From: Yuukianura sp. NJ FZ-2021
Lineage: Eukaryota
DNA: 64,000 bases
Direction of reading: 5' to 3'
NCBI GenBank assembly: GCA_046563655.1
Contig: CM102286.1
Span: 1,116,001 to 1,180,000 of the forward strand
A program made the translations under genes and the position numbers. The notes under the pieces are model-generated. The model did no database searches, was not told the origin of the DNA, and saw only the letters and a list, made by a program, of their open reading frames with translations. Numbering within the stretch: position 1 is the first letter of the stretch; each line of letters begins with the position of its first letter. Positions 10,401 through 44,100 of this stretch are shown here, in pieces.

Positions 10401-11517
10401 CTAGGATGATTTTGTAAAATTCATCAAGCATTCTAAAGTGAAAGTGTTTTGAATAAATGAGGGGAAGCGGCGGGGGTGAAACGTTGTAATTTGGGCTGCT
10501 AGCCACAACCTAAGCTCCTCTTCTCAAAAGTTTTTGGTGAAAGTGGAGCTTTATCTCCCACGGCGTCAAAAACCACACTAAGGAAGGAGGAAGTTTGCTG
10601 GAGAAAGTTAGGCTAGGTAGGCCTAACATTTGCTAAAATCCATTTAAATCCACATGCATAATTTAGCATTCCTTCAAATATTCATAACTCACTTTACTCT
10701 GGATTCATCAAGCAGACAAAATGGGATTAATTAGATCCAAGTGCTGAACAGAATGTTAACTAATAAAAGTATTTTTTGCTGTCATACGTAGCACAAATTT
10801 TTTAACCAGAATGCCATGCAGTAGCTGACCATTGTTCTTCTGGGTAATATTGTGTTCTATTTCAGGTAACCCAAAAAAAACGAATTTTTTTTTCGTTTGT
10901 CACTGTAGCATTTCATTTGTTACGCTAACATCCACGAAGGAAAAAAAAACTTGACCACCAGTTTTGGCTCATCCGCCTATCTTCAGTTTCTACTCGAATG
11001 ATTTCATATTGGCATAAAAAAACTCCTTCAGTCATAAGCGTCAGTTTTTGCTAGAAACGTAATCAAAAAATTATTATATAATAAAACATTTAATAATTTT
11101 TATTGAAAAAGCACGTAACATTCTGTCGAACATGTCATGTATCAAAATTTCAAAAAAAAAAAATACTAAAGAAAGCCCGATCTGCTCTCTGTTGAGGGTG
11201 AAAGTCAACTTTCTCCACCAACACACAACGTGTTTCACATTTTCCAAAAAAAACTAAGCAATTTAGATTTCAAATACGCTTACACGAGTTTAAATATAAA
11301 ATATTTATTATGCAAAGACGAGGTAAGTAATTTTTGAACCATTCCAAAATTTTCTAACCATATCTAATTTCAAACGCAAATACGAAATGAGTATATGTGT
11401 TTGTTGGTGGGCAATTTGAAGCAACAATTTCAAAATTTTGAAAAGTTGGCGTTTCATTTTATGTTGGGCAGTATTTCTAAATGTGTCCAGTTGTTGGAAA
11501 AAACGAGAACTACCAAC

Positions 11518-13205
11518 ATGCTGTCTCTGGAAGCAATTGACTTGCTTGAGGGAATATTTTCCATTAGCAGTCGCTTTTTCGCAATTCCATTTGTGTGGAA
11601 TCCTAAGCAGTTTAAACTTTTTGTAGTTCCCACCAAAAGTTTCCACTTCTTAATTGTGTGTCTCTCAGCCGTTGCGATTGGATTGGATTTTGTTGGCCAG
11701 TTGAGGAATTTTTTTACAGTACTTTCACTGGTTAAAGCAAACTCAGCCCCTAAGGAAGCTGCAGTCTCATGTGCATACAATGCCTATATAAAATATGTAT
11801 TTTTCAAACTGTACACTTTGTATATTATTGAACGACATTCCGTGGCACGTCAAACAAACTTGTTCCTTAATTTTTATATTAGTTTCAACAACAAAGGTAA
11901 TAATATTAGTTAAAAAAAATTCGTTTTCAAAAACTTGTAATTTTTTACTATTCTGGCATTCAAAGTTGCAGTGTCTGAGCACTTTCGTGAAAAGAAGGTT
12001 GAGCAATATCGGAGTGGACTACGATTGTTGAAAGTGTTGATTGTAGTTAGCGCCATCCTCATAGTCCTGTTGATACTGACATATTTTACTTCAAAAACAG
12101 CTTCAGCCGTGGGCATCTCTATGGGAACCGATGCAACATTTTTGAAGCGGCTAGTATTTGCACCGCTCTTCTTCTTGAACCTAAACTACGTTCATATAAA
12201 TAGATTTTTATTCTCAGTTTGCACAGTATACGCCTTTAGCACAATCGATCTGCTCATGGAAACCAACCGGTAAATTTATTAGCTTCAAAAGTTTGTACAT
12301 AACAGTTTTAGTTAATTACTAATAACGCAATACAATCCAATATATGGAATACAAATCGGGTGTTCAAAAAGTTAGTTTCATCCTTTCCTCGCTGTGTAAC
12401 TTCTCCATACATGTAGATACCAAGGTTCGTAAACAAACAAGCTACACCAGGTTGTCCAGAAACTGGCAGTTTTAAAATTTGTTTGAAAATAACAAATCTG
12501 CTTTTCTATGGTAATTTTTGCATGTAATGTAAATGCGATTGGAGGAAAATTGGAGGAAAAAATTGTTTTCTTCCAAAAATTTTGAAGTAGGGAGGTACTG
12601 AATAACCTGGTGTAGCAAATACAACTTGTTGTATTTTGGTTGTCAAGGCACCTTGGTAGATACTACTTACTACACATTGTAACATGTGTATGTATTGTAA
12701 GTAAGCTGTCATACGTTTGTTGCTTTGCAGAGCTCCTTCTCAATCAAGCGAAAGTTCAGGAATGCTGCGACGCTATAGATGCCTGCAAATTTTGAATACG
12801 GAGGTAGCCGCCATTTTTGCCGCCATCTTTCCCAACATCGTTTTGTTAGTTTTGGGAACAAGTGTAATTCCACTAACAACTTTAATTCGATTCCTTTCTG
12901 GCCAATCAAATCCAAAGTTAGGCAGAAGTAATTACGTTTTGCTATTTGGTAGAGGAATACTTGGAATCACATTTGCTTGTTTTCTTTTCCCAAAATTTAG
13001 TGTCGTTAACGTACAATCTAGAAAATTGGTTCGCAAATGGCAGAAATTTGACAACAGAAGTTCTGAATTTGGGAAAGAAGCTAGGTCTTTAAATACGTTA
13101 AGAATTTATGTAGCTGACCTTTACTACTTTCAAAGGGAAACTTCCTTCAGAGTTATTGGTTCCATCTTCTACCTCACTTGCAGACTTATTCTCCTACTCA
13201 AATAA
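11518..13205 (+). CDS. Multi-pass membrane protein, gustatory/odorant-receptor-like (7TM chemoreceptor superfamily)
   Basis: Three exons (~11518-11896, ~11957-12269, ~12731-13205) with several hydrophobic helices. C-terminal LRIYVADLYYFQRET...TCRLILLLK resembles divergent GR C-termini. Confidence 0.55.
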
Positions 13206-14094
13206 GAAGTTAAATAGTAATTTACGAAATAAACTATCATAAGAATACAAAAGACTGACATTAGTAATTTCAGTTTTGTTCACCTTGCTATTAAAATCAT
13301 GTTGCATTTTTGTTTCTAAGTTTCAAACCTGTTTTAAAAACGTTAATTTCTATAATCTCAAAGAAGGTATAATAATTACTGATTTTCAGTAGAATAGGCT
13401 TTGACGTTGCCTTATACTACAAAGTTGTTCATTATCTAAAGTATCTCCATTTTTGTTAATTCAATTACGTTTTTGATTATTCAAATGCTCCTGACGTCCA
13501 AAAACAAGTTTCTATAGTCAATTTGCTTTGTAATTTAAGTCATATAGGCGGTACTTTTCAATAGCAGAAGATTAGTCAAGTTCCACCTTACAAGTATTAA
13601 AAGCGTACAAATTAATGATAAAATGTAATTGATAGCCCCTTTCACAACTAGTTAAAAGGTAATACAGATTAAATCGGATTTGCATATTTAAGAAGAGACG
13701 TACTATATAAGAGTCATTTGTGATGAAAAAGTTTAGTTTAAACGTTCGACTGATTTTCAACTGCATGTTTCTTTTAAATCAAAAATAAAATTAATCGTTC
13801 TTAAAAAGTCGACTCAAAAAATTTCTTTGAACAGAATTTTGAAATAGAAAATATAAGGGACAACTAGCTTTTTAGACTCTTTTTTTTTGTGTTCTCAAAA
13901 ACCAAAAATAATCACAAAGGATTTTAAGTCTGAATAATCTCACATACGGCCTTTGGCTATAAAAGTTTTTGGAGTTTTTTTCCTATTTACTTGTCAAAAC
14001 AATTTAGAAACAAAAAATAAGCTGACAAGTACAGTGAGAAAATTTTGAATCGATAACTTATATTTTTTCATTTCAATATTTTCAAATTCTCACA

Positions 14095-15081
14095 ATGAAA
14101 ATTGCAGACGATCGAGTTTTGCAAATAAGTGAAATCTTGAAATGCATCGAAAAAGCTACGGACTTCATTCGACACAAAACGAATCCAGTTTTTGGTCTTC
14201 AATCGACGTTTATCGGTACCTCACGACATGAATTGCAAATTCCGTCGCCATTTCCACCAGAACAGTTCACGACTCTTCTAGCTCTGGATCTTCTCGACGG
14301 TAAAGTGGAGCCGAACATCATCCAAAATTGGCGAAAAAGTCTCAAAGGCTGTCAAGATTTATCAAAATCCACTGCAAACTTTTTTTACCCAAACAATTCC
14401 TATAATCTTCCAGACGATGTTGACACTACTTCCCTTTTTTACCTCACGCATGCTCAATACTTTTCAAACGAAGAATTGCTCCAAGTCGGCCAGTCGATGC
14501 TTCAAAATGTCACCAAAACCGGAATTATTCAAACTTACTTCCCGCCTCAAGGACATCGCATTCGGGTCGACTGCATTGCTAATGCCAACTGCATGAGACT
14601 TCTGTATCGCTTGGGGCTGGACGCAGACGCTGAAAAAACTGAAAGCGACATCTACCACAATTTAGTGTCAAACGAATTTTTGAATGGATCTCGCTACTAC
14701 TTTTCGCCAGACACATTTTTGTACTTTGTTGCTCGAGCTGTTGGCACGACCGAGCGTTCGAGATCAATGTTTCTGGAACCGACGCTGACAGCGATTCTTC
14801 AGCGCATGGGCATTAGTTCTCAACCGCTAGATTCTGCGCAGAAGATCTTGGCTCTGCATTATCTCAATGTGCTACACGGAAATGAAGTTGATTGGCATGG
14901 AGTTGTTGAAAACGAAGTTCAAAATTTGATCGAAAAGCAAATGGAGGATGGCGGGTGGGAGGAAGATTCGGTTTTCAAATTTGGAAGCAAGGAAATTCTT
15001 CTCGGAGGGAGAGAAATTACTTCCGTTTTTGCATTGGCTGCGCTGATTTCATACGCAGACTCTTTAACTTTTCGATGTTAA
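14095..15081 (+). CDS. Intronless class II terpene cyclase domain protein (DxDTT type, like the cyclase domain of AstC/drimenol-synthase enzymes) without a HAD domain
   Basis: Single 328-aa ORF with PDDVDTTS, RVDCIANAN, GSRYYFSPDTFLYF, the QW-type motif QMEDGGW and GGREITSVFALAAL. TATAAAA near 13958. Confidence 0.8.
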   Translation: MKIADDRVLQISEILKCIEKATDFIRHKTNPVFGLQSTFIGTSRHELQIPSPFPPEQFTTLLALDLLDGKVEPNIIQNWRKSLKGCQDLSKSTANFFYPNNSYNLPDDVDTTSLFYLTHAQYFSNEELLQVGQSMLQNVTKTGIIQTYFPPQGHRIRVDCIANANCMRLLYRLGLDADAEKTESDIYHNLVSNEFLNGSRYYFSPDTFLYFVARAVGTTERSRSMFLEPTLTAILQRMGISSQPLDSAQKILALHYLNVLHGNEVDWHGVVENEVQNLIEKQMEDGGWEEDSVFKFGSKEILLGGREITSVFALAALISYADSLTFRC

Positions 15082-15775
15082 TTCGTTTAAGTTATTAATC
15101 TTATAAAAGATAAGTTTTACCATACTTTGATTACTGTTTACTTAATTTTTCTAATTACTGATTACTAACTAATCATACTGTATTATTCAGTTTCACTTAA
15201 AAAACTAGGTTTAAGATTACAGCTATACACATACGTTTGGATTCAAACAAAAATAAAGTTTCAAAAACGGTTTTAAAAAACAAACAAAAATTTGTGTTAC
15301 CTAATTAATTTTTTTATTGCAATGTTGGATGTAAATCTGACGTCAGCACATTGATGTCTTTCAGATTGGCGTATGTGTAATGCTACACATCGTTAAGAAA
15401 ATTAAATGTAACATAAAACCGGTTCTACCGGACACCAATTAAAATTTTTGTTCCAATTTTTGTTGTTGCATTGACGTACTTTCAATTATTTTTTCATTTC
15501 ACAGAAGATAAGCTTAAAAACAAATTAAAGTGAAAATTCAACTACCACTTTAAAACCGAACTTGGGTGAAAATCTGTCAAAAAAAGACATTTAAAGTTTT
15601 TTATTTGATGCTAATTTTCAAAAAGTTGTTTGAATATTTGCTAGTTTGAAAGTCTTACAAGTTTATTGACTACTTTTGTAAGCTATTGTGAGCTTAACTC
15701 AAGTCACCGAAAAGTCATCTGAGGTCAACTACGTTCCCAATGCTGAAATGGGTACAGGTCACGAGGTCATTGACC

Positions 15776-16828
15776 TCACTTCAACTTTGCAAAAATCCTG
15801 ATAGGTGACCCCGTCCCGCCTTCTACTTTCAATGGAAACAAAAATAGATTGAATCCTTTTGCCGGGAGAATATGCAAGTTGGCGACATTTTCCATTAGGA
15901 AAATGTTGCGAGCGCCCATGTACGAGTGCACAGGAAAAGTCTAAAAAATTTGAGCAATTTAAGATCATTAAAAACAGTTTTAACCTTTGACCTTCTCCGG
16001 TAAGAATTTTGATACCTCAGTGTACCCAACGTCCAGTGATACTAAAAAGTTAAGAAACAATTGAAAAATATGTCGAAATATGCTGCAGTTTTTTTTTCAC
16101 TAACCAACATCAACTCCAACACCGAAAACGCCTCGTTCTGCAAAAACTTTTGCAGATCCGAGACCCAATCCTGGAAACGAGCAGCATTTCGGATCATTTC
16201 CAATAAAGTCTTTTCCATCCGTTAAAAATTTGTCTCCCCACCCAGTTCGCACAAAAACGACGGAACCAGAAGGGATTTTGCCATTCCGTTGTTCCCACCT
16301 AAACGTTTAACTAACTTTTAGTTAAGTTAAATTTTAATTATTCTTAGTTTTTAAGTCTAATTACTCCAAAATATCTTCTTTTCCAACTGCATAGTTGCGT
16401 TTGACCGGATTTACTTTGGTTATTTTCCAGGACATGTCGATCATAATGCCCGGAATGTCCATGAGTCGTTCCAGCGGAATGTCAGTGAGTTTCCACATGC
16501 CAGGAAAAACGTGAAACGGAGCGTCAATGTGTGTTGACATATGTTCACTCATGATGAACGACTGAGATGCAACCCTGTCAACAACAATTAGGTCAACTGC
16601 AATACAGTCAACAAGTATTTTTATAACTTACCAGTCGTTGGCGTCGTCAGGTTGGTGACGTTCTGGCCCATCCATCTCGTCGTGTCGTTCAAACCGTCGA
16701 TGTGTTGGCCAAAGTGGCGTTTCAGAGCCAATTGGATACGTAAGGTCAACATAACGTGCTGGAGTAACAAAATTCCAGAAATTTCCAAAGAGAAAAAATT
16801 CTATAAAAAAATTTGTACTGGAATACAT
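15776..16828 (-). CDS. Kynurenine formamidase-like / putative cyclase family metal-dependent hydrolase
   Basis: YVDLTYPI; EHMSTHIDAPFH (HxGTHxDAPxH variant); FVRTGW; FPGLG; GVGVD; C-terminal PLKVEGGTGSPIRIFAKLK*; about five exons; hydrophobic N-terminus. Confidence 0.88.
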
Positions 16829-17280
16829 TTTTACTAAACAGTTTTTATGAACTGAAGACGCCGACAGTTGGAATCGAACTCACCACTTTTTCAATTTCCA
16901 GCGTCGGTTTTGACCCTAACGAGAGTTCTTAATTAAGAAATGGCTTGACACAGATTGACATACGTCACTGATTTGACATGTGTCTGTTCAAATTGTGCAA
17001 AAACTGAGTTGCTGTCAATTTAATAAATGTGCATTTAGGTCAACTTTGTTTTGATCAACATCAAAGTTCCATTACAAATGAGATTACTTTCGGACAACTA
17101 AAAGCTTTTGCGGATTTTCACACTAATTAAATTATGTACCTACAAACAATTTTAGTTAAACTTGACATCAAACCAATTAAGTTAGTTTCATAATTTACTA
17201 CTACATTATGTTAGAGAATTGGGTGACAGGTCACGAGGTCAGATTCAGAATGGTCACTGGTTGCTTAGCAACCAATTGAT

Positions 17281-20200
17281 TTAGGCATAGTAAGCCCAAA
17301 TGCAAATTCCAATGGTCATGAGAAGCACAGCATTTCCACTGGCAAATCTACAAATCCAGAAATTGTCCAATTTTGTTAAAATCATTTGAAATTTTTGGAA
17401 ATTTTTTCAATTGTTAACTCACCTCCGCCAGAATTTGTTTTCATTCAAAAATTTTGCGGCTTCCATGGCTTCTTCCTCCAGCGTGGCTCGAGGCGTGACG
17501 TTCTTGTCATTTTCTGGTTCCGGAGCAACAGAATCCGAAGACAACCCGCAGAAACAATTGACAGCTTTTCTGAAATAAGAAGCTTCTGCTTCATCGTTGA
17601 CGATTTGCACTGCTGAGTTCTTCCGCGCCTGCGCGTTGATCTCTTTCTGCTGGTTGTCAATCGGCTCTCTGACGGCAGTGCTCGTCTTTGTCCAGAATGT
17701 GAGTCTGTGTAACTTATCAGGGTCAATGGGTTCAGTGAGGTAACTGATCACAGTAGTCACGATCAGAGTGACAAAGAACAGTCCAATGCCGTAGTGAAGG
17801 TAGTGAACTTCCTTCAAAAATGTTTTGATCCACAGAGGGCGAGCGTCCTCTTCCACTAAATCCATTCAAAAATTAATTTTGAAAACTCCATGCACCATTT
17901 TTTTTTTGAAATTTCAGAGAAACTTACATGATCCGCATGCAGGAGCAATAAATGAGAACTCAAGGACGAATCGGAAGAGTCCCAGCACCAGTCCGGTCAT
18001 CAGTCCCCAAAATGCTCCCTAAAACACACAAAACTTATTGACTTTTTGAAAAGAACTTTTGACATGTCACACAACTGACATAAAATTGAAGCATGCAGAA
18101 AAAAGCAGTGGACAGAAATGGCATGAATAAAAAACGGCGGACAGAAATGACATAAACAAAAAACGGTGGACAAAAACGGCATGTAGAAAAATAGAAGCAT
18201 GCAAGAAGCAAGGTCTATTCACTCAAACTTACAAGTAATACAGAAGAATTGTGTCAAAATTAACGCAAATCAACAATGTTTTTCCTACTTGAGAGTCATG
18301 CGCATGCCAAAGTAAACACTTGGAAATTAAGGTGAAAACATGTTCATGCCAAGACGTTAAGTGAAAATTACATAATGTCGACTTTCACCTGCTCTGTTGT
18401 ACGCTGTGAAGCGATGGCCGTGAAGTACACAGCACAAACGGGAGGAGCCAAGTAAGAAGTGATGCTTTGAATGTACGTAAACAGTTGAGACTCACGATAT
18501 GCCAAAATAATTGGAACCCACACAATACTCACCGCCACCAAAAACAGAACAAACAACCTGTGTCAAACGTTAATTAAAATTAATTCATCAACCTTCCACA
18601 AAAATTCTTGTTTGTTCTCCACTAAACCAATGTCAAAAACTAACAAACCGTCAAACACCTCTCAAATTTGTCCTACATACACGCTCTCTAACTAAAAAAT
18701 ATACCACAACCTTGGAACAAATTTGCACCAAAACCCCAACAAATTTTTGAAAAAATTTGCAAAAATCGCCCGAAAACCCCGGAAAAAAAGCTTCGAAGCC
18801 CCAGCGGTATTTTTGTGTCGTTTTAAATTTGAAGTTACCGGTTCGTTTGTCCTAGGCACAAAAATGGCCAATAGGAAAACAGCAGCTATCGGAGGTGACA
18901 GGAAGTTTGAAACTTGTTGAATGTAAACGAAGAGTTGTGGGGAATTTAGGTTGCTCAGGACAGGGACCCAGAGAACTGAGATCACCATGACAACGCCAAC
19001 AGATGCCCTTTGAATTTGTATCCATGGTTACTATATCCTAGCATATGCAGCTAATGTCATTACATCTACGTGACTTACCTGCCAACAATTAGGAGTTCCG
19101 TATCAGACGGATTTTTTCTAAAACGTGTCCAAATGTCAATTGTGAAAATTGTTGAAGAAGAATTGAAAATTGAGGTCAATGAACTCATGAGAGCAGCCAA
19201 CATTACAGCAAGTAATAATCCAGAGAGGCCTATAACATTCAAAAAGTTGCACTTTTTCAAAATTTTGAATTTGAATTTCGCGCCATTTTGAACTTTCAAT
19301 ATTGCATACCAACTGGCATCAACTTGATGACGAGTTCAGCATAAGCTATATTTGTACATCCGCTTCTCGAGCCACAAACTTCATAGCAAACGTCCGGATC
19401 TGCACAGGCCACGCGATCAGTAAACAAAACCCGAGCGGCCATTCCCGGGAAAACTCTTAAAAAAACCAAAATTTTCAAAATTCAAAATTTGATTTCCCGC
19501 GAACTTTCTTTGAATTTTAAAAATTCGGTACTTACAGAAGGTACATTGGCAACAGTTTGAGGTATCCCGCCAGAATGCAGCCTCCCTTGGCATGCGTCAT
19601 GTTTTTTGACGCAAGTGCTCTCTGTACAATAACCTGATCTGAGCACCAGTACCAAATGGACGAAATTGTGAGTCCAAAAATGACGCCAGTCCATGGGAGG
19701 TCACTGTCCAGGTCACGGAAGAGATGCATTGCATCCTCAGGTACTGCACCACAACTTTTGTTATTGGCATCGTAGAGAGTTGCGTTTTCAGAGGGATTTG
19801 CGTTCATAAATCGCCTGATCAATTCATTGTAGCCGCCAACAGCATTGAACGACAGGATCATCAAAATCACTGAACCGACTAACATTAAAACTGTTTGGAC
19901 AAAGTCAGTCCAAATCACTAAAAATTGAAACAAAAAAACATCACCAATTTTTAAGAAACTTAAAAAAACTTCAACTAACATACTAAATTTAACGTGAAAA
20001 TTATAGCTCATGCGTACCTGCTGTCAGCCCTCCAGCGATTGTAAAAACTGCAGCGATTGCAAGTAGAATCATGATTGAAATATACAGTCCTCCATCTCCA
20101 GATAATCCAAGAGCCAGTTGAATAAAAAGTGCTCCAGCGTACAAGTCAGCCTTAACAAATTTTTAACTTTTCAAATTTTAACAAAATTTGAAAAGTTTTA

Positions 20201-29290: not shown

Positions 29291-32200
29291 ATGGAGAAAT
29301 CTGTGGCTACTGTTCTTACCGAAAAAATATTTGGCAACGGCATCTCATTGACGGTAGAGACATAAACTATGAAATTATATATATTATATTAATTAATTAA
29401 TTTAAATAATAAATTTTTGCAAATTTGAATTAATTAATTTGAATTTGAAAAACTAGAATGGGAAGCACAAAGAAACTACGAACGGAGTCGAACATCATCC
29501 ACAAAAAAATGGAGTCACAAACGGACATCACAAAATTTCGAAAAGTGGGCTAAATGGCGTTGAAAATTTGAAGAAAAAAACTGTAGAGAATTCAAAAAAT
29601 TTGGAAAATTTGGACGGCGCAATCGCAATAGTCGGCATGAGTTGTAGATTTCCTGGAGCAAACGATTCAGAAGAATTTTGGGATTTGTTGATCAACGGTC
29701 GAAATCCGATTGGTCCATTTCCAGCCAATCGACCACCTCCGTTGAACGATGACCAGAAAAACTTTGAAGCGGGATTTTTGAAATGTGCTGTAGATGAATT
29801 TGATGCTAAATTTTTTGGAATGAGTCCCCGCGAAGCTCCATTTGTGGACCCCCAGCAACGGATTTTGCTTGAAGTAGTTTGGGAAAGCTTGGAAAACGCT
29901 GCGATGAATCCAGAAGAGTTGCGTGGGAGTGACACGGGCGTTTTTGTTGGAATTTGGAACGATGAGTACAAAAGCTGGTTTCCCGAATTGGGCTTGGATG
30001 CTGGAGATCATCATCGGATTTACTTGGGAAATGCTTTCAGTGCAACTGCAGGACGCATTTCACACTTCCTTGGACTTCATGGACCAAACTATTGTTCAGA
30101 GTGAGTCAAAATTTCAAAAAACGTAAAAAATCAAATTCTAAAATTTTTCTCCTTTCAACTTTTTTTTAGAAGTGGCTGTTCCAGTAGTGCCGGAGCTCTG
30201 CATCTTGCTTGCCAGGCGCTGCGCAATGGAGACTCAAAAATTGCAATTGCTGCCGGTGTGAATTTGGTTTTGCGATGCATCAATCCGATTGGTGGAGGAA
30301 AACTTCTGGAAGGACCAGTGTTTGCACAGGACTTCAAATGCAAATCTTTTGATGAGAGGTACTATGAACAAAAACAAAATTTGAAAAACTTTTCCAATTT
30401 TTTTTAAATCAGTTTTTAGTGTAGATTAATTACATTTATCTCATTACAGAGCTGATGGATATGTGAGAGCAGAAGGATGTGGATCGGTGGTGCTTCGTCC
30501 ACTAGCTGACGCGATTAAAGCAGGCGACAATATTCACGGCGTCATTCGCGGAATTGCACTAAATCACAATGGCTCGTCCAGTTTTGGAAGTCCAAATGCC
30601 ATTGCAATGGAAATGGCTGCACGGGAAGCTTTGAGAGAAGCAAAAGTAGAACCACGTGACATAAGCTTTGTAGAAGCACATGGGACAGGAACTGCCGTAG
30701 GAGGTACGGTAGACTTTCTAATTTATGAATTGGGCAAAATACAAAACAAATGGCAATTGCACAAACGGGAGTTAGAAAATTTCCTTACTCTGAGGTTTTA
30801 TTGTCATTGCAAAACCCACCGAATAGGCAAATTTTGCAATGACAATAGCACATGGCAAGGAAATCTTCTAACCTCCCGTTTCTGCAATTGCCATTTGTTT
30901 TGCATTTTGCACATTTCATAAGTTGGAGGCTTCATTGTAATGAAATGACAAATTTTTAGTTAACTTCAGTTTAATTAATTAACTTAAACTAGTTTATACT
31001 AACGTAACCTAAATTATGTTTCAGATCCTGCGGAAATCGATGCATTTGAAAAAGTATATTCAGCTGACCGGCGGGAAACGCTGTTCGTGTCTTCGGTTAA
31101 GACGAACATGGGACACTCAGAGTCATGCGCCGGATTGGCGGGGCTAATCAAAGTCCTTCTTTGTTTCAAACACAAACAAGTTCCACCACACCTTCATTTT
31201 CAAAATTTAAACCCGCGAATCAATCTTGACAAAATTCCGGCATGTATTCCCCTCAAACCGACCGCATGGGCACAAGAAAACCGGATTGCCGCAATCAATT
31301 CCTGTGGCATGAGCGGCACCAACGTTCACATGATTGTTCAAGAACCACCGCCAATCAAAACTTTGAAAAAGCACCACATTGCAAAACTACCACAAATGAT
31401 TGGCATTTCTGCAAAATCTGAAGAAGCTTTGGACGCTCTTTGTGCAAAATATGTTTCTCATTTTGAGCAAGATCCGAAACTAAGTTTGAGCGACATCGCT
31501 TTTACACTTAACACCGGAAGAGCAAACTTATCGCATCGAATTGGCCTTGTTGCAAAAGATACGCAAGACTTTATGATAAAACTGACGCAGAAGATGTACG
31601 TCAAAGGCAAAAATTCGACGCAGAAGCCAAAAGTGATTTTTCTGTTCACGGGTCAAGGGTCACAGTACTTTCGAATGGCTAAAAACGTGTACGAAAATTC
31701 GACAATTTTCAAATTGGCGCTGGATCAATGTGAAACACTTTTCAAAAAACATGTGACCATTTCGCTCAAAAAAGTTTTGTGGGAAGATGCTGCCTTGCTG
31801 GACAAAACCGAGTACTGCCAACCTGCAATTTTTTCAGTCCAGTATGCACTCGTTCAACTTTGGAATTCTTTTGGCATTGTTCCTGACATGGTCCTTGGTC
31901 ACAGCGTTGGTGAGTTCTGCGCATCGGTCTGCGCAGGAGTAATGTCACTGGAAGATGGAATGAAGTTAGTTGTCGCCAGAAGCAGACTTGTGAATTCTTT
32001 GGATGGCGGGAAAATGCTGGTTTTGAAAACGTCGCCAGAAAATTTGAAAAATTTGCTTCAGGAGTTCGGTGAATCTGATTTGCATTTTTGTCTGGATGTT
32101 GCCGCCGAAAATTCGGATGAAGAAGTTGTCGTTTCTGGCAGTTTTGAAAATGTTCAAAAATTTGGAAATTTTTGTGAATCAAAAGGACTTAAAACCAAGA

Positions 32201-35200
32201 TGTTAAAAGCTTCTCACGCTTTTCACTCAAGACAAATGGATCCAATCGCACGAGAATTTGGACAAGTTGCTTCAAAAATTAAACCACAAAGTTTCAAATG
32301 TCGATACATCTCTGGTACTTTAGCACGGGAAATCAAATTTAGTGATGAACTTGATGCTAAATATTGGGTGCGTCATTTGCGTGATACCGTGAGATTCCGT
32401 GACGCCAGTATCAAAATTGGACAAATTTTGGAAGAATCTAAAATTTTTGTTGAAATTGGCAGTCAACCGATCCTGTCTGCCCTGACCATGGCCAACATTC
32501 CCAATTGTGCAAAAGACACATTTTGTGCTTCACTGCGCAGAAGTGAAGACGACTTGTCGTCAATTTTGAATTCACTGTCCAAAATGTTCGTAGCTGGAAT
32601 GCAAATTTCATGGAAAAAATGGTTTGGACAAAATTTGGCCAACAAAAAACTAATTCTACCGACGTATCCGTTTCAACGCCAAAAATTTTGGTTTCAGCGT
32701 GAAGATTTTTACGCCGCCGAATCGTCGCATCATCTTGAAATTCATCCGACGCTTGGTCGTTCCCTACCAACGCCATTTTCAGAACATGTTTTTACCCAAA
32801 TTTTGTCAACTCGAAATTTAAAATTTGTTGCAGATCATCGCGTTGCAGAAAAGATAATTTTTCCTGGAACGGCTTACTTGGAAACCATCATGGCCGCGGG
32901 GTGTCACGTTCTCCAAGCCGGGAAAATCCAAGTTCCAGTTTCAATCCAAAATTTTGCAATTGATGCTCCACTGGAACTGGAAAAATCTTGCCAAATTCAA
33001 ACCATTGTGAAACCAATCGGAACAGATGAGGTAAAATTTGAAATTGCAATTCACAAGCAGTCACGTGAAGATACACAGAAGTGGAAAAGACATGCAACTG
33101 CTGCGTTTGTGCCAAGTCACATGCGTCACATGCAAGTTTCTCACAGTGCCCCAATTGATGTAGAAGAAATCAAGAAAAATTCAAAGTTTGTGGAATGCAC
33201 TACGAAAGCTTACGATGCCCTGGGAAAATCTGGATTCCAATTTGGCCCCAAATGCAGATCGATTTGTCGTGCCTGGTTTACAGAAAATGGACTTTTGGCT
33301 GAAATCAAAATGCCGAAAGATTCAAATTTGTTCATTTGTCATCCGGTTGTATTGAACGCAATGGTGGAAACTTTTGTGTTGCATCCAGCACTGGATCTTA
33401 CGGAAGACGTTTTGCTTCCACTTGAATTTGCAGTTGGAATCAGAAAATTTATGCTGCACTCTCAAAATTTTACATCTGAAGTTTATGCATACGGAGCGTG
33501 GGAAAATCGGAATGTGAACGTCACTTTACTGAATTCAAAAAATGAAATTTTGGCAACAATGGAAGGAGTTGAATACATCCAGTCCTGTGCTTCCAAATTT
33601 TTGAGTTCACTGAATCAAGAAAACAGAGATGAACTACCTCTACTCTATGAAACTTGGCGTCCGACCAATCACAGTTCGCCTGGCACGGATTCGACCAATC
33701 ACAGCACGTCTTGCAAAGAACCGACCAATCAGCAACTGACTTCGTCTGTTATGACTTGCGCAAATCCATCCAGGTCTACTTTGCTTGTGCTTGGAGACGA
33801 TTCTCAATTGGAATCAAACCTAACTTCAAAATTGTTATGGCGTGGACGCAATGTCATCAAAGATTATGCGCATGATCAGTCCAGAAATTTAGAAGGAGTA
33901 ATTTTTATGTCGACCGTGATCCCTTCAAGCTTGGATGAAAATCAAGAAAAATGTAAACAATTTGTCAAACTTTGTCAAAAGTTGATTTTGACTTACGAAA
34001 ATGAAAATTCAAAACCAACAATAGTTTTGGTGACACGCGGAGTTCAGTACTTGGAAGACGAAGGACCGGGAAACCCAAACGCAGCTACAATTTCAACTTT
34101 TGTGAGATCTTTTGCCAACGAACACAAAGATTTCAAAGTCAAAGTCATTGACCTTGACCAGAGCGAGGTCAACTTCGATTCGGAAGCAGAAGCAGCATTG
34201 AAAATAATTTGGTCAGAAGACAGCGAAATGTTTACGGCAGTTCGACAAAATCAAATTTTTGTTCAGCGATTGACATTTGCTGAAAAAATGAAACAGCCAC
34301 TTCCGTTTCCAAATTCAAACCGATTTCAAGTACTGACACCAACAACAAAAAATTTGAACGATTTGGAAATTTCTGTGGCGCCAAAAGTGGATCCAATTGA
34401 AGATGAAGTTGAAGTGGCTGTGAAAGCAACTGGAATAAATTCCGAAGATTTGTTTTTTATCCAATCCGAATTTTCGGATTCAACCAATCACGAACCAGGT
34501 TTGGAAGTGGCAGGAATCGTTTCAGATGTAGGACCAACCTGTACAAAATTTAAAATTGGTGACGCCGTTTTTGGAATTGTTGAGGGAAGCGGATTGGCAT
34601 CGCATGTTACAGTATCGTCAAAATTTTTGATGCGAAAACCAGATCACATGACTTTCACTTCGGCTGCTTCAGCTCCAGTTGCCTTTCTAACATCTTTTTA
34701 TGGACTCCAAGAACTTGCAAATTTGAAACCCGGAGAGCAAGTTTTGATTCACAAAGCAGTTGGAGGAGTTGGTCTCGCAGCGATTCAAATTGCAAAAAAT
34801 GTTGGAGCTGAAATTTTTGCAACAGCGGGAAGTCGAAGGAAACGAGCCTATTTGAGATCAATTGGAATCAAACATGTTTACCACTCCAGAAATACGGATT
34901 TTGGAAACGAAATTTTGAAAGACACAAATGGAGCAGGAGTGGACGTCATTTTGAATTCCCTGACTGGACCACATTTTAAAGAAGCTTCACTCAAAGCCTG
35001 TGCTCAAAATGGCAGATTTGTGGAAATTGGGAAAATGAATATTTGGACGGAAGAGGAAGTGAGGAGCATGCGTCCAGACGTTAAGTATTTTGTGGTGGAA
35101 CTTGCTGAAACTTCTCGCAACGAACCAGAAAAATTGAACGAATTGGCGGGAACTGTTGAAGCTGAATTTGAAAAAGGGTCGTACCAGGGGCTTCCACATG

Positions 35201-36520
35201 AAGCTTTTCCTCTGGACATGATCAGAGAAGCTTTCTTTTACTTTCAAGAAGCAAAACACATTGGGAAAATTGTCATCAACATTCCAGAGGCCAAAGTTTC
35301 ACCAGCAGGAAAAATTGAATTTAAAAATAATCTTTTCCATTCACAAAGTACGTACTTGATCACTGGGGGGTTGGGTGGACTTGGGCTTCAAGTGGCCAAG
35401 TGGATGAGTCAATCAGGGGCCAGGAATCTAGTTTTACTGGGACGCAGCAAACCTTCAACCGAAGTTCAAGAAATTTTGAATGTCATGGCTGCCAGTGGAT
35501 GTCGAACGGTAGCTCTGCAAGGAAATGTTGCAATTTACGAAGAAATGGAAACGTGTTTAAAATCTTTGGAAACTTTAAATTTCCCGCCACTTCGTGGAAT
35601 TATGCATGCGGCGGGAGTACTAGCAAGTGGAGTTGTGCAAAATTTGACATGGGAAAAATTTGAAACTGTTTTTCGGCCTAAAGTTCAAGGGACTCTGAAT
35701 TTGCACAAATTGACCCTAGGTTGTGACCTCGAATTTTTTTTGATGTTTTCAAGCATTGCTGCTATTTTTGGCAGTCCAGGAATTGCCAACTATTCAGCGG
35801 CCAACGGATTTTTAGATTCATTCATGAACTACCGACATGCAATGGGGCTTCCAGCCACGAGTATAAATTTTGGACCTTGGGCAGAGGTACGATTCAAAAT
35901 TTTCAAAAAACTCAGATAAAACGCAAATCCAAAAAAAAATTCAATTTTTAACATTTTTTTTTTTTGCAAATTTTGTGTAGGCTGGAATGGCTGTCACTGA
36001 TTTCAAAGACGGAGATTCTGGAATTTTCCATTTTCCACCCGCTCAAGGCATCTCTGCAATAGAAAACATTCTTCGAACCGGAATTAAGCGGTCGACGGTT
36101 TTGAAAGTATCGGATTGGAGTACCGTGAAACACAACTTCCGACTCGGTAACTACTTGGACGAGATTCAATCAACTACCAAAGTCGAACCTTTGAACAGCG
36201 ATTGGCACGTTTCTGTTTTGGAAGAAATCCAAACTTGTTCTACATTGGCAGAAAAACAGACCAAAATCCAAAATTTTTTGATGAAAACTTTGAAAGAGAC
36301 GCTTCGAGTGGCAGAAAAGGAACAATTAGATCCAGATCAAAATATTTTTGAACTTGGAGTTGACTCGCTCATTGCCATCGAGTTGCGCAACCGCCTTCAA
36401 GCAACTTTTCAAAAAATGCAACTAACAGTAAGTGCTTTGCAATACTCAAGCGTCCAGCGTCTTGCTGCTTACTTAGTTGGTTTGATGCAACTCGAAAAAC
36501 AAAATCAAGGTCAACCGTAA
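29291..36520 (+). CDS. Type I reducing polyketide synthase A: KS-AT-DH(variant)-ER-KR-ACP, no cMT and no release domain
   Basis: Exons 29291-29353, 29457-30100, 30170-30358, 30450-30703, 31025-35886, 35981-36520. KS: ESGCSSS, EAHGTGT, KTNMGHSE. AT: GHSVG and HAFHS. DH: HRVAEKIIFP. ER: GGVGLAA. KR: TGGLGGLG and NYSAAN. ACP: GVDSL. Start codon less certain. Confidence 0.95.
30711..30932. mobile_element. MITE-like fold-back element in a PKS-A intron
   Basis: ~100-bp imperfect inverted arms (gcaaaatacaaaacaaatggcaattgca...attgtcattgcaaaa / ttttgcaatgacaat...tgcaattgccatttgttttgcattttgc) around a ~17-bp spacer. Confidence 0.8.
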
Positions 36521-38153: not shown

Positions 38154-41100
38154 ATGAAAGGTAAAAGTTGTCCATTTAAAAGATTCGATAAAAAGATGTT
38201 TTTTAATAAAAAAAAAGTGTTTAAAAAAATATTTTTAAAAAAAATTCAGTGAACATATAAAAAATTGAACGTAATTAAACATCATCAGCTAAAAAAAAAC
38301 TAAAATTCATCCCAAAAATAACGATTAATTACATTTTAGTTCATTTAAAATTGCAAAGTTTTCAACTTTGTACATAAGTTTTAACCTTGATTGTAGATGT
38401 TGAAATTTTTCCTGTTATTTTTGGAAATGGGAAGTTTGTTTTTTAGCATCAGCGTAAAAAGTAGTCATTCGACTTCTGGAAAGTTTCAAAATCCAATTTT
38501 CTTATAAGTGTCCAATAAATTGCAAATCAAGTTTAAGTAGTTTAGTATTTTTTGAAACATTTTGGTCATTATAGTTGAAAAAGAGTGATTTCTGATTCTA
38601 AACTAGTTTGATGGTGAAAACTAGTTCTGTGGACAACTTTGTTGTTGTTTGATGGCTCAATATCTACATAGGTGTCAAATAGTTGTCGAAGTGCAATTAA
38701 CAATGACTGACAACTTACAGTAACAATTACATCCTACTTTGTACTTTTAATTTTGTAGAACCCCAGTGCTGGGTGACCTTGGCTCAAAGCGATGCGGAAG
38801 GATGGGCAGCCACTGTCCTTGCAAGGTCAATTCGGAATTCCCTCACTACTCGGCCTCTGACAATTGTAATTTCGGAAAATGTGACGCTACCAATGAAGTA
38901 ATTAAAGTTATACTAATTTATATTCAACCTGTTTATGTGATCTCATACCACTGCTTCGAATGAATGGCTCCGAAATGAAATGCTACGAATGAATTGGTGC
39001 GAAACCAATTGCTGCGAATGGCATATTTACTGAACGGCAAATTAAAAATAGTAGCTAAAACAAAAATTTCCTACAAAAAATGTTCACCTAGCGTAATGAG
39101 TCTTACAACTCCAACGAGTGTAATTTTATAATTGTTAGCCCTAAAGCTAACTTTACAATTGTTAGGTTAACTTAACCTCCTTACTGTGAACTAATACAGT
39201 TCGGAGCAACTTTGTTGTCTTTCGGAGGAATTGGGTTCGTAGGGATTCATTCGGAGCGTTTCATTTGAAGTAATGTCGTGATACCGTTTAGGTAAACTCA
39301 TTTATGTAAACACTGTTTAGGGTATTGCTGCAGAAGGAATTCGACGCAGTGTTTCGATTTGATTTGGCTGAAGTAGGTGGACATGCCAATTGTGGGCTAT
39401 TGTGGCTCTGGAACTTACGGAGCTGGACAAAATGTGTTTATGTTGACGCAAACTCCTACGTAAGACAAAGCTTCAAAAAATTGAGATTTAAACAAAATTA
39501 ATTTTTAACTTGCGCCAATGGTTCATCGTAGATGCTCAAAAATTGTGACGATTTGTTTCAAAAACCATCGTTTTCTGCTGTACAAAACGAAAATGGTACA
39601 TTCTCTACGCAGCTATTCGTTTTCAGGCCAAATGTCACTGAATTTGACCAACTTTTGGAACTTGCTCAAGATGCCAAAGGTTAAAAATTTAACTCAATTA
39701 ATACTGCATGTGCTATGAAACATTTGAAATTTCGAAATCTCAATTTTAAAACTTCAAATTTCAGGAGATGTTGTGAAAATTCTCAACTGGAACTTCAACG
39801 AATCCTTTGCCAACCCCAAAAATCAAATTCGCGATTCCGTGCTATGGAAAGTTACTGAGCTTGGAAGCAATTCGAAGTAAGATGCGGGCTACATACTAGT
39901 TTATGTTATATGTGAATACTGTTCGTCCTACTAAACTAAAAGTATTAAAATATTGTATTAGTATTATATTTTATTGTTGTTTATATAATTTTGCATCTTA
40001 TAGTCACTTGGATCCAAACATGATAAGTTTTGATGGACCAGCTTGGAAAAAAACCGGGACGAATGACGCCATCAACGAAATTGTGCACAAGTGGATTGCA
40101 ACTTTTGTGCACGAAGTCATTCCACACATCAAAGGAATGAAGGTACACATAATATTACTTAATACATATATTTCATATTATTACATATTAATATATTTCT
40201 ATATATTATACATTAATATTGTGGCGTCTGGCAAAAATTGGTCTATCCCTACCCGAATTATTGTCAAAAACATTTTTTTTAATTTTTTAATTTTAGATTT
40301 AATTTTAATTTAATTTTAGAATATTTTTAAAATTTGCCCAAATATTTACTTACAAGATTAGGATTGCATGGAAGAAATGAGTTGCGAGAGCCGCTCTTTC
40401 ACCTCATGTAGAATAGGAAATGATAGGTCAATGGTTACAGCTCTTCCCGGATTGAAGCGATGTGGGTTCGAATCCCACTCGGTTCATTAATTTTTCTACA
40501 CGCTGGCTTGTCTCTCAAGCCATGTGAGCCTTGAATCTCACAATGTATGATGTTTTAAATGTTATGTAGGATGAAGGTACGAGGAAGGCATTGATGGAGG
40601 CCATTGAAGAACGTCAACTTCCTGTCGTCAATGGTCCAGCGTCCACTCGTCCACAAAATCTGGAGGATCTTGGAACTTTGAAAGACGCCATTGCAGTAGT
40701 GGGCATGAGTTGTCGCTTCCCTGGAGCCAACAACGCCGATGAATTTTGGGAAGTGCTTGCCAGTGGCAGAGATCCGATCCGAAAATACCCGGCTGACCGT
40801 CCACGTCCACCGAGTCACCGATACACTGTTGAGGATGAAAAGGCTTTTGAGGCGGGATTTTTGAAATGTGCGGTAGATGAATTCGATGCAAAGTTTTTTG
40901 GAATTAGTCCCCGCGAAGCTCCGTTTGTGGATCCTCAACAGAGGATTTTGCTTGAAGTGATTTGGGAGAGCCTTGAAAATGGAAACATCAATCCACAAAA
41001 GTTGCGTGAAACTAACACTGGCGTGTTTGTTGGGATTTGGCAACAGGAGTATAATCAGCATTTCCCAGATTCACTTGCATTCACACCAAATGAATTTCAC

Positions 41101-44100
41101 CATCGATATTTGGGCAATGCCTTCAGTGCTACCGCCTCTCGTATCTCACATTTCCTTGGACTTTATGGACCAAACTACTCAATCGAGTAAAAAATATGAC
41201 AAAAGCAGCAAAAATTTTAAAAATAGAAAAAAAAAGTTTAGCATTTCTGAATTTCTCAAAATTTGATTTCGTAGAAGCGGATGTTCAAGCAGTTCCAGCG
41301 CAGTGCATCTCGCTTGTCAGAGTCTGCGTAGAGGTGAAACTACGCTGGCAATTGCCAGCGGTGTGAACCTGGTTTTACATTTCGTGAATCCAATTGGAGG
41401 AGGCGACGGAGATGCTGTTGTGCTCTCAGCTAATTTTAGATGCAAAACTTTTGATGAGAGGTTCATTTTTAAACTAAAAAAAAATTTTCAAAAAATTCTT
41501 TTAAAAAAAAACTAAATTTTTTTTTTGTTTTTTATTTTTGTTGCGAAACAGTGCTGATGGTTTCGTGCGAGCAGAAGGTTGTGGTGCAGTCGTATTGAAA
41601 CCTCTAGCACACGCCATGCGCGATGGAGACAACGTGATTGGCCTAATTCGCGGGACGGCCCTGAACAATGACGGCCCTGCGACCAGTTTTGGAACGCCAA
41701 ACGCCAGAGCTCAAGAACGAGCTTACCGCGAAGCTCTGGCCGACGCTGGAGTAAAACCGAACGAAGTTAGTGTCGTAGAAGCTCATGGAACAGGAACGAT
41801 TGTGGGAGGTAAAAACAAAAATTTAGATTTTTTTTCTTTTTCTGAACAGGTTATGCCATAACTCCTGCTTTTAAAAAATTGTTTGTTTTGAATTTTTTCT
41901 ACGATTTGTTAGCCTCGCACCTTGTAAAGTAAATGCGATTGGTCCAAAAGTTATTTTTTTTAAATCAGACTTATGGCATAACATGTTACAGCATTTGTAC
42001 ATATGACCGTTATAGTAACCTTGGATGAAACAAAACCGTTAAAACATTTTTTTTCAATAAGTTTTGCATTTCAAAATTTTTTAGACCCCACTGAAATGTA
42101 CGCCATTGGACAAGTTTACTCTGAAGACAGAACTGAACCACTTTTCGTCAGTTCTGTAAAAACGAACATTGGGCACTCCGAGGCATGCGCAGGAATGGCT
42201 GGGCTGATCAAAATCCTTCTTTGTCTCAAAAACAAACAACTTCCACCGCACCTTCATCTTGAAAGACTAAATCCCCGAATCAATCTTGAATCCATTCCGG
42301 CCATAATTCCACAAGAAGTGACTGCCTGGACAGCCGAAACAAGAATTGCAGCAGTCAGTTCATTCAGCATGAGCGGAACCAACGTCCACTTAATTGTTCA
42401 AGAAACTCCCGAAATTTTGAAATCTCCGGCCAAAATCAAAAAAGATGAAAACTCAAAACCGTTTGACATGATTACAATTTCGGCCAAATCGGAAGAAGCA
42501 CTGGAAGCTCTTTGTCAAAAATACGTAACCTATTTGGAGGAAAATTCAAATTTGAATATCAGCGATATCGCTTATACGCTCAACACTGGAAGGGCAAACA
42601 TGGCACACCGAATTGCTCTTGTAGCAAAAGATACTGCCCAAGTAGTTTCAAAATTACAGAGTCGTTCGTATGTCATTGGAAAAGCACCAACACAAAAACC
42701 CAAAACGATTTTCCTGTTTACGGGTCAAGGGTCACAGTACTTCAGTATGGGCAAAAATTTATACAACATGTCACCAGTATTTCGGTCGGCATTGAGAAAA
42801 TGTGACACCCTTTTTAAAAAATACTTGCGCTGTTCTCTCAAAGACGTTTTGTGGGGAGATGCAACTTTTTTGGAACAAACAATTTACTGTCAACCGGCAA
42901 TTTTTTCGATTCAATTTGCACTTTTCCAACTGTGGAACTCATTTGGAATTTTCCCAGACTTTGTTGTTGGTCACAGCGTTGGTGAGTTCTGCGCATCAGT
43001 TTGCGCAGGCGCACTGTCACTTGAAGACGCAATGCGATTGGTTATCGGCAGAAGTAAGTTGGTGGATTCTCTTGAAGGCGGGAAAATGATGGTCGTCAAA
43101 ACATCACCAAGTGAAACACGCGGATTGATTCAAGAATTCACGGCGTCGATAAAAGAAAAAGACGTTTGGATTGACGTCGCCGCTGAAAATTCAATGGAAG
43201 AAGTCGTCGTTTCTGGAACGGAGAAAAACGTATCAGATTTCGGCACTTTTTGCTCATCACGTTCTTTTAAAACACAGATGATCAGTGCATCTCACGCTTT
43301 CCACTCTCGTGAGATGGATCCAGTGTTGCCTGAGTTTGGTGCATTGGCGTCTCGAATCACCCCGAGCAAACTCAATTGTCGTTACATTTCTGGAACATTA
43401 GCGCGCGAATTGTCTGAAACCGATTTCGACTCTTGTTATTGGATGAGACATTTGAGAGATACTGTCCGATTTTGCGATGCAATCAAATATGTCAATCGCT
43501 TATTTGACGAACCCAAAGTTTTTGTTGAAGTCGGAAGTCAACCGATTTTGTTAAGCCTGACAATGGCAAATTTGTCTAGCACTACAACTGCAACATACTG
43601 TCCATCACTACGCAAAAGTGAAGACGATTTGACCTGCGTGCTGAACTCACTTTCAAAAATGTTTGTCGGTGGAGTCGATATATCTTGGGATAAATGGTAT
43701 CCCGAGGCCAGGAAATTATCTTTACCGACTTATCCATTTCAGCGCCAAAAATTTTGGATTCGAGATGAAGACGAAGGCATTCCGATTCCGCCTATGCTCC
43801 ACCCAATTCTTGGACGTCATTTGCCAGCTCCAGTGTCAGATCACGTTTTTGCACAAGTTTTGTCATCTAAAGAGTTAAAGTACGCTGAAGATCATCGTGT
43901 CGCTGAAAAAATTATTCTTCCAGCCGCAGCGTATTTGGAAACAATCATGGCCGCTGGATGCCAAATTCTGCAGGGCGGCAGAGTTCAAGTTCCGTTCAGC
44001 GTCGAAAATTTACAAGTCGAAGCAGCTTTGGATCTGACAAAAAGTTGCCAAATTCATACAATTGTGCGGAGTTTAGGAGAAGAAGGTGACATTAAATTTG

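Follow-up and report, generated by a model that had tools for sequence, protein, structure and literature searches.

Animals were long held to be unable to make most cyclic terpenes. The 64,000-nucleotide stretch of genomic DNA analyzed here (positions 1,116,001 to 1,180,000 of contig CM102286.1; "the window" below means this whole stretch) contains, among genes of animal type, an open reading frame (ORF) for which a horizontally acquired class II terpene cyclase of the DxDTT type had been proposed from the letters alone. The locus raises the questions of whether the encoded protein is such an enzyme, whether the gene is a settled part of the host genome, and what the protein might make there. 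We find that the ORF, located at 14095 to 15081 on the plus strand, encodes a class II terpene cyclase with a single beta domain that belongs to the AstC-like TC-beta family. It is probably a functional stand-alone enzyme encoded by the nuclear genome of a soil-dwelling arthropod, most probably a springtail, and the gene would have been acquired long ago and diversified since. This reading builds on homology, the fold, the conservation of catalytic and phosphate-binding residues, the presence of a single domain, the eukaryotic surroundings, and the place of the protein in the tree, and we infer the activity, the chain length of the substrate, the product (C15 or C20), the downstream partner, the donor, and the expression. 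Such a family, motif, and stand-alone form have been described before, and the novelty lies in the host.

Identity, fold, and catalytic residues of the cyclase

The ORF encodes a protein of 328 amino acids (P0001) in a single exon running from ATG to stop codon. The same frame has a stop 19 codons upstream of the ATG, and the cyclase domain begins about 13 residues after the ATG. When P0001 was searched with phmmer against the PDB, it matched the cyclase domain of AsDMS, the drimenol synthase of Aquimarina spongiae, at an E value of 1.7e-29 over residues 96 to 317 and matched AstC at an E value of 1.1e-10. A search of 1.84 billion representative proteins returned 443 relatives at an E value of ≤1e-3, and on the strength of these two sets of matches the ORF is more than a product of chance. 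The best identity to any known protein was 41%. All four word-index matches of P0001 carried the precomputed label PF28380 (Atlas name AstC-like_C); the same label is carried by 42% of the members of the nearest Atlas cluster, and the clusters of the family are labeled bacterial there. As a check of cyclase-domain homology, a profile built from an alignment of 30 sequences (alignment A1) was covered over 99% of its length.

An AlphaFold2 (AF2) model of P0001 made with a 30-sequence alignment had a predicted local distance difference test (pLDDT) value of 92.1 and a predicted template modeling (pTM) score of 0.92, with an all-helical core and no segment below a pLDDT of 50. The ten best Foldseek matches of the model were all AsDMS chains (TMq, 0.80 to 0.83; root mean square deviation, 2.2 to 2.6 Å), and the comparison with AsDMS structure 9mhs gave a template modeling (TM) score of 0.82, with the aligned structures being about 27% identical in sequence. 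After the AsDMS chains came other class II cyclases, among them the squalene-hopene cyclase (SHC)-like 8pak, SsDMS, and MstE. The fold predicted by the model is a single alpha-helical barrel, that is, a beta-domain fold. Both phmmer against the PDB and Foldseek bear out the proposal that P0001 is a class II terpene cyclase with a DxDTT motif and that it shares ancestry with the AsDMS and AstC cyclase domains.

A squalene-hopene or oxidosqualene cyclase with a beta-gamma architecture was considered as an alternative identity and rejected. SQHop_cyclase_C scored 11.4 bits against a cutoff of 26.1 (E value, 0.16), and TIGR01787 scored 18.9 bits against a cutoff of 322.7. The squalene cyclase profiles of Pfam and NCBIfam touched only the last ~65 residues of P0001, including its QMEDGGW stretch, with all scores below threshold, and SHC itself matched P0001 in Foldseek only at the level of the fold (TM score, ~0.6).

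Residue roles were taken from the AsDMS study (PMC12232559), and the numbering was transferred through the phmmer alignment between P0001 and AsDMS. The proteins P0142, P0143, and P0126 are homologs of AstC and not AstC itself, and the mapping was for that reason made on AsDMS numbering only. In this alignment, D110 of P0001 corresponds to D323, the general acid of AsDMS, and D108 corresponds to D321. Both lie in the stretch DDVDTTS (residues 107 to 113; 14413 to 14433, plus strand), in which D108-x-D110-T-T forms the class II acid motif, so that by alignment P0001 has a DxDT(T) motif with a putative general-acid Asp. AacA and AstC cannot do without the corresponding Asp (D270N and D273N, respectively), according to PMC13244436. 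The residues R155, R157, R200, and Y201 align with the phosphate-binding residues R368, R370, R415, and Y416 of AsDMS, and a diphosphate-holding set of Arg and Tyr residues is thereby predicted for P0001. The first two belong to HRIRVD (residues 154 to 159; 14554 to 14571, plus strand), which overlaps RVDCIANAN, starting at residue 157, and the other two belong to GSRYYFSPDTF(LYF) (residues 198 to 208 for GSRYYFSPDTF; 14686 to 14718, plus strand). The last stretch also contains Y202, which with F97 aligns with the cation-pi residues Y417 and F308 of AsDMS. Within alignment A1, D108 and Y202 are invariant and Y201 is conserved at a level of at least 90%. Near the C terminus lies a QW-type repeat, QMEDGGW (residues 282 to 288; 14938 to 14958, plus strand), found by motif search, which we take to be a QW motif. 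The ORF and the four motifs quoted in the original prediction are thus all present, with DDVDTTS beginning at nucleotide 14413 where about 14414 had been given.

Domain architecture and phylogeny

Among the 150 best matches of P0001 in the library of 1.84 billion proteins, 114 were shorter than 400 amino acids. The stand-alone form is therefore the rule in this family and not an oddity. The 36 longer proteins comprised 12 with Terpene_syn_C_2, the class I terpene synthase domain, which occurs in either order relative to the cyclase (P0008, P0010, P0012, P0020, P0022 to P0025, P0030, P0109, P0114, and P0117), 11 with HAD, 10 without a Pfam domain, and one each with His_Phos_1 (P0041), NUDIX (P0119), and a methyltransferase (P0054). 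A literature search for functional studies of the class I-fused relatives gave nothing relevant. For P0001 itself, Pfam found neither HAD nor Terpene_syn_C_2. When the HAD (five parts), His-phosphatase, NUDIX, and methyltransferase portions of the fusion proteins were searched by tblastn against the 64-kb window, no match was better than an E value of 0.27, and for six class I-fused relatives only the cyclase portions matched anything in the window. Together with the stop codon 19 codons upstream, these results uphold the description of P0001 as a single domain lacking HAD.

For phylogeny, the cyclase domain was cut from 155 proteins, and the 127 that covered at least 75% of the profile were kept. 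Removal of the near duplicates P0003 and P0005 left 125 rows for a quick tree. A more careful tree was computed with IQ-TREE from 52 hand-picked rows, which were all 16 of the clade containing P0001, the class I-fused rows, those of the HAD clade, and 13 with a single domain from other parts of the tree; support for this 52-row tree is given below as ultrafast bootstrap/Shimodaira-Hasegawa-like approximate likelihood ratio test (SH-aLRT) values. The two trees agreed. In the 52-row tree, P0001 paired with P0006 (100/99), to which it is 41% identical; residues 13 to 320 of P0001 align with residues 21 to 327 of P0006 (331 amino acids), and since P0001 aligns end to end with its relatives, no intron need be assumed in its gene. 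The pair fell within a nine-row clade made up only of single-domain proteins (95/96), which also contained a protein from the springtail Allacma fusca (P0135; CAG7821423.1) that is annotated as "unnamed protein product" and is 28% identical to P0001. A larger clade of 16 rows (98/98) enclosed these nine together with the class I fusions P0008, P0010, and P0012; of these, P0012 comes from the arbuscular mycorrhizal fungus Scutellospora calospora (CAG8634281.1). The HAD-fused enzymes, including the AsDMS-like P0039 and the AstC-like P0126, formed a separate 11-row clade (97/96) with P0001 outside it, and the 125-row tree likewise placed P0001 outside a HAD clade of 13 rows (SH-aLRT, 96).

This topology bears on the original prediction, in which the HAD was lost from an enzyme of the AstC or drimenol synthase type and an unrelated host phosphatase converts the drimenyl diphosphate product to drimenol. 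The best solved relatives of P0001 are drimane enzymes (AsDMS and AstC), a bacterial homolog with a single beta domain uses farnesyl diphosphate (FPP), and PMC13638087 reports drimanediol from the springtail Podura aquatica, all of which would fit such a descent. However, AsDMS and AstC are the sole solved members of the family, and so the best PDB match says little about the product. Moreover, P0039 and P0126 belong to a clade without P0001, and the fusions in the clade of P0001 carry class I domains and not HAD; because the HAD clade stands apart in this way, descent by loss of the HAD is not supported, and with a single-domain majority among the relatives, domain loss need not be assumed at all. 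We therefore consider that version unlikely and set aside the description of P0001 as a HAD-fused drimane synthase that lacks its HAD.

The relatives of P0001 appear to be overwhelmingly nonanimal, as had been expected. Among 29 relatives looked up by name, an organism was found for two, one fungus and one springtail. A scan of metagenomes gave 12 loci, of which only L001 to L003 represented close relatives and L004 to L012 showed 25 to 30% identity over ~115 residues. ORFs are sparse on the metagenome contigs of P0006 and P0009, one of which also has a copia-like fragment; for these reasons the contigs look eukaryotic. The fragment, on the P0009 contig (L002, 2159 to 2461, minus strand), resembles the RNase H/integrase-adjacent part of a copia-type retrotransposon as judged by eye. 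The N terminus of P0009 resembles a signal peptide.

The terminal branch of P0001 is long (0.92 changes per column). Taken with a best identity of 41%, it could indicate a decayed or noncatalytic relic, that is, an old transfer whose expression or activity has been lost. Against this, the 328-codon frame is intact and the model is confident throughout, and all mapped catalytic and phosphate-binding residues are kept except the equivalent of AsDMS R503. In addition, four of the seven listed variants within the ORF are synonymous, one in the D108 codon, in what is a small sample restricted to the best-supported differences. A relic is in our estimation very unlikely, and we continue to read P0001 as a functional enzyme.

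Host genome context and origin

Pfam searches of 14 ORFs of the window identified JHBP, SLC5, MFS, PEBP, DJ-1, ankyrin, and lipase genes alongside the cyclase, and the best named match of an MFS exon was from Allacma fusca (32% identity). An SLC5 exon searched against the Atlas yielded no informative taxon. Two polyketide synthase (PKS) genes farther downstream gave collinear tblastn matches broken by short gaps, which we read as introns. The animal-type character ascribed to the contig is thus supported by the JHBP, SLC5, and MFS genes and by intron-split neighbors. The cyclase ORF has a GC content of 0.432 and a GC content at third codon positions (GC3) of 0.424, within the GC3 range of the host exons (0.307 to 0.554), and the cosine between its codon use and that of the host exons is 0.935. 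Its flanks are AT rich and noncoding, with GC contents of 0.27 and 0.32. Contigs from public sequencing runs bridge the start codon (14064 to 14488) and the stop codon (15021 to 15863) into these flanks; the run contigs, from four runs, are short, and contiguity over the 8-kb stretch was shown piecewise. A run from a second study contained a 432-nucleotide piece of the cyclase ORF with 5 differences. The cyclase is in this way physically linked to host genes of eukaryotic structure, as would be expected of a resident transferred gene.

Contamination or a chimeric assembly, in which microbial or fungal DNA was misjoined to an arthropod contig, was considered as an alternative. The family is mostly bacterial by its Atlas cluster labels, the exact P0001 sequence occurs neither in the 15-billion protein collection nor in the Atlas, and no run contig spans the whole 8-kb stretch. 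Yet host genes lie on both sides of the cyclase in one 64-kb window, run contigs cross both ends of the ORF into the flanks, a homolog is annotated in the Allacma fusca assembly, and AT-rich noncoding flanks with host-like codon use are not a gene-dense microbial setting. Because of the linkage to host genes, the introns, the host-like codon use, and the bridged ORF ends, we judge contamination to be exceedingly improbable. The evidence points instead to an old, compositionally settled acquisition in an arthropod genome, probably that of a springtail.

The foreign ancestry of the cyclase also appears to have been judged correctly, in that its relatives appear to be mostly nonanimal and the Atlas clusters of the family are bacterial, with the limit that the tree is unrooted. 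Broad vertical orthologs across animals would have spoken against HGT. This objection applies in a narrow form, since one of the 29 relatives looked up by name comes from another springtail, Allacma fusca, and that homolog suggests that the acquisition is old within springtails and not recent.

Two other features of the reads concern the cyclase and its surroundings. In run X2, two contigs cover the 5′ part of the cyclase (14064 to 14488), with 4 and 42 differences, respectively, in 425 letters; the divergent contig represents either a second haplotype, ~10% diverged, or a paralog in the same sample. Run X5, from another study and from organism B, contains a 3.2-kb contig with a depth of 150 that covers 15439 to 18623 with ~6% differences and has a loose end before 15439, and the cyclase ORF is matched in that run only by contigs with a depth of ~4.

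Proposed function and mechanism

On their own, the TC domains of AacA and AstC turn FPP into a cyclic diphosphate, as described in PMC13244436. A natural mono-beta-domain enzyme of Sorangium cellulosum cyclizes FPP without Mg2+, and its alcohol product was detected only after phosphatase had been added (bioRxiv 10.1101/2025.09.20.677545). A single domain of this family thus suffices for catalysis, and from these precedents P0001 would be expected to cyclize FPP or geranylgeranyl diphosphate (GGPP) and to release a diphosphate. In the mechanism that we propose, the linear prenyl diphosphate would bind at the mouth of the alpha-helical barrel, where R155, R157, R200, and Y201 would grip the diphosphate. 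D110 of the DVDTT motif would then protonate the terminal double bond, and the resulting cation cascade would yield a bicyclic skeleton of the drimane or labdane type, which would leave the enzyme with the diphosphate still attached. A separate enzyme would have to finish the product; this could be a phosphatase, or else a class I terpene synthase of the microbial type reported from springtails. The presence of class I fusions in the sister group suggests that the downstream partner could be a class I synthase instead of a phosphatase; drimenyl diphosphate as the product, with a host phosphatase acting on it, is possible. The gene itself may have come from a microbial or fungal lineage long ago and then diversified within springtails.

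Several observations weigh against parts of this reading. The position of R503 of AsDMS, proposed to make a further contact with the diphosphate, is occupied by S298 in P0001, with K299 adjacent to it; it is the sole mapped catalytic or phosphate-binding residue that has changed. In alignment A1, P0006, which is closest to P0001, does not have the R-x-R found in HRIRVD, and this site therefore varies among members of the clade. The window encodes no class I terpene synthase and no phosphatase that could serve as a partner. With respect to the host, the link of the window to springtails consists of one match with 32% identity, the JHBP domain, and the tree position of an Allacma protein with 28% identity, and taxon evidence is at hand for only two of the nine rows of the "springtail" clade. 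Lastly, the tree is unrooted, and so the donor and the direction of transfer cannot be read from it.

We propose more tentatively, as a possibility that falls somewhat short of probable, that springtails carry a clade of single-domain class II cyclases of their own, anciently acquired and diversified, to which P0001 belongs. If so, its members might supply bicyclic prenyl diphosphates, possibly 8-hydroxylated, to class I synthases or phosphatases and would correspond to the class II/class I fusions of the sister fungal group, but divided between separate proteins. The drimanediol and sclareol of springtails could then be explained as products of the animals themselves. To our knowledge, such a lineage would contain the first class II cyclases of animals besides the sterol-forming oxidosqualene cyclase.

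Flanking signals and neighboring genes

A candidate TATA box (TATAAA; 13958 to 13963, plus strand) lies 137 nucleotides 5′ of the ATG, within the AT-rich noncoding flank with a GC content of 0.27, and a candidate polyadenylation signal (AATAAA; 15252 to 15257, plus strand) lies 171 nucleotides 3′ of the stop codon; both were found by pattern search, and their functions are putative. Just 5′ of the cyclase, three consecutive hydrophobic ORFs (181, 110, and 166 amino acids; 11368 to 13205, plus strand) had no Pfam match and may be exons of a gene for a multipass membrane receptor. The summed contig depth over 12335 to 12868 reached ~10,100 in run X1 versus ~250 to 350 in neighboring bins, with many joints and loose ends, which indicates a high-copy-number repeat located in the upstream gene, either in an intron or in a gap. 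Directly 3′ of the cyclase, at approximately 16080 to 16700 on the minus strand, an exon matches PF04199, "Putative cyclase" (E value, 2.9e-11). An HxGTHxDxPxH-type motif is, we presume, typical of PF04199.

Two tandem genes for highly reducing type I PKSs lie 15 to 35 kb downstream of the cyclase (29457 to 36520 and 40570 to 50219, plus strand). The first is organized as KS-AT-DH-ER-KR-ACP and the second as KS-AT-DH-MT-ER-KR-ACP-reductase, and short introns interrupt the KS region of both genes. Among named proteins, the closest to them are cyanobacterial PKSs (37 to 39% identity), and other, metagenomic proteins reach 46 to 62%. PKS1 and PKS2 look like further foreign-type genes of secondary metabolism that have settled in an animal genome. 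Their exons account for the stop-to-stop frames of 1638, 1549, and 1098 amino acids in the window, and the claim that the cyclase is the only substantial intronless ORF had to be given up; it may be the only complete single-exon gene of the window.

The proximity of these genes suggests another role for P0001, namely that it forms a local cluster with the two PKSs and cyclizes not a prenyl diphosphate but a prenylated polyketide, giving a meroterpenoid as MstE does. The cyclase, PKS1, and PKS2, three secondary-metabolism genes of microbial type, are found within 36 kb of sequence, with the PF04199 gene between the cyclase and the PKSs; the cyanobacterial matches of the PKSs and the presence of the single-domain MstE among the fold matches of P0001 point in the same direction. 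MstE, however, was matched only by fold (E value, 4e-6; 12% identity; TM score, 0.64) and gave no sequence match, and the retained phosphate-binding residues of AsDMS fit a diphosphate substrate. Furthermore, ordinary host genes (SLC5, lipase, and secreted-type ORFs) lie between the cyclase and the PKSs, and there was no prenyltransferase among the 14 ORFs of the window that were scanned. We regard such a cluster as quite improbable and retain a prenyl diphosphate as the likely substrate.

Possible significance for terpene biosynthesis in springtails

The skeletons of drimanediol and sclareol arise by proton-initiated cyclization of the class II type. Both compounds are known from springtails, drimanediol from Podura aquatica and sclareol from Megaphorura arctica as well as Folsomia quadrioculata, as reported in PMC13638087. 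Class I terpene synthases of microbial type have been described from springtails, mites, and fungus gnats (PMC11665903 and PMC13638087), and for springtails the latter gives 277 genes in 21 of 26 genomes. The term "class II" is absent from the main texts of both papers. A full-text literature search, with most subscription journals outside its reach, returned no paper on class II terpene cyclases in Collembola, and a full-text search on class II terpenes in arthropods gave nothing related. P0001 and its relative from Allacma fusca are thus concrete and testable candidates for the missing class II step in springtails. A lineage of class II cyclases in animals would be a real addition, even though the biochemistry itself is familiar. 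The tree also exposes an uncharacterized group of class II/class I fusions from arbuscular mycorrhizal fungi and soil eukaryotes, which may offer a lead to where the gene came from and to the enzyme that naturally works with it.

Comparison with known systems

AsDMS (9mhs and 9m7d) combines a HAD phosphatase with a TC-beta domain. It shares with P0001 a homologous cyclase domain, the DxDTT motif, and the phosphate-binding Arg and Tyr positions, whereas P0001 has Ser in place of R503, falls outside the clade of HAD fusions, and has no HAD, so that it cannot dephosphorylate its own product. The fungal HAD-like terpene cyclases AstC and AacA (22tz and 22ty) belong to the same family as P0001, and their isolated TC domains are active alone. 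In AstC, the HAD-like domain belonging to the partner subunit caps the active site and tunes the choice of product, as stated in PMC13244436, whereas P0001 lacks this cap and lies outside the separate HAD clade to which the AstC-like proteins belong.

The closest known working model for P0001 is the mono-beta cyclase of Sorangium cellulosum, a stand-alone TC-beta protein related to the AsDMS domain. That enzyme is bacterial, and its motif is given as DxDVT (bioRxiv 10.1101/2025.09.20.677545). The class I fusions P0008, P0010, and P0012 are the nearest fused relatives by score, with 35 to 39% identity to P0001, and in alignment A1 they share with it an insertion near residues 257 to 270 that the bacterial-type rows lack. 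They carry Terpene_syn_C_2 before or after the cyclase, whereas neither P0001 nor the window has this domain. The class I synthases of springtails (PMC13638087 and PMC11665903) are likewise microbial-type genes resident in springtail genomes, and according to PMC13638087 many of them are without introns and they form a clade of their own of unresolved origin. They differ from P0001 in being ionization-initiated, alpha-domain enzymes with an unrelated fold.

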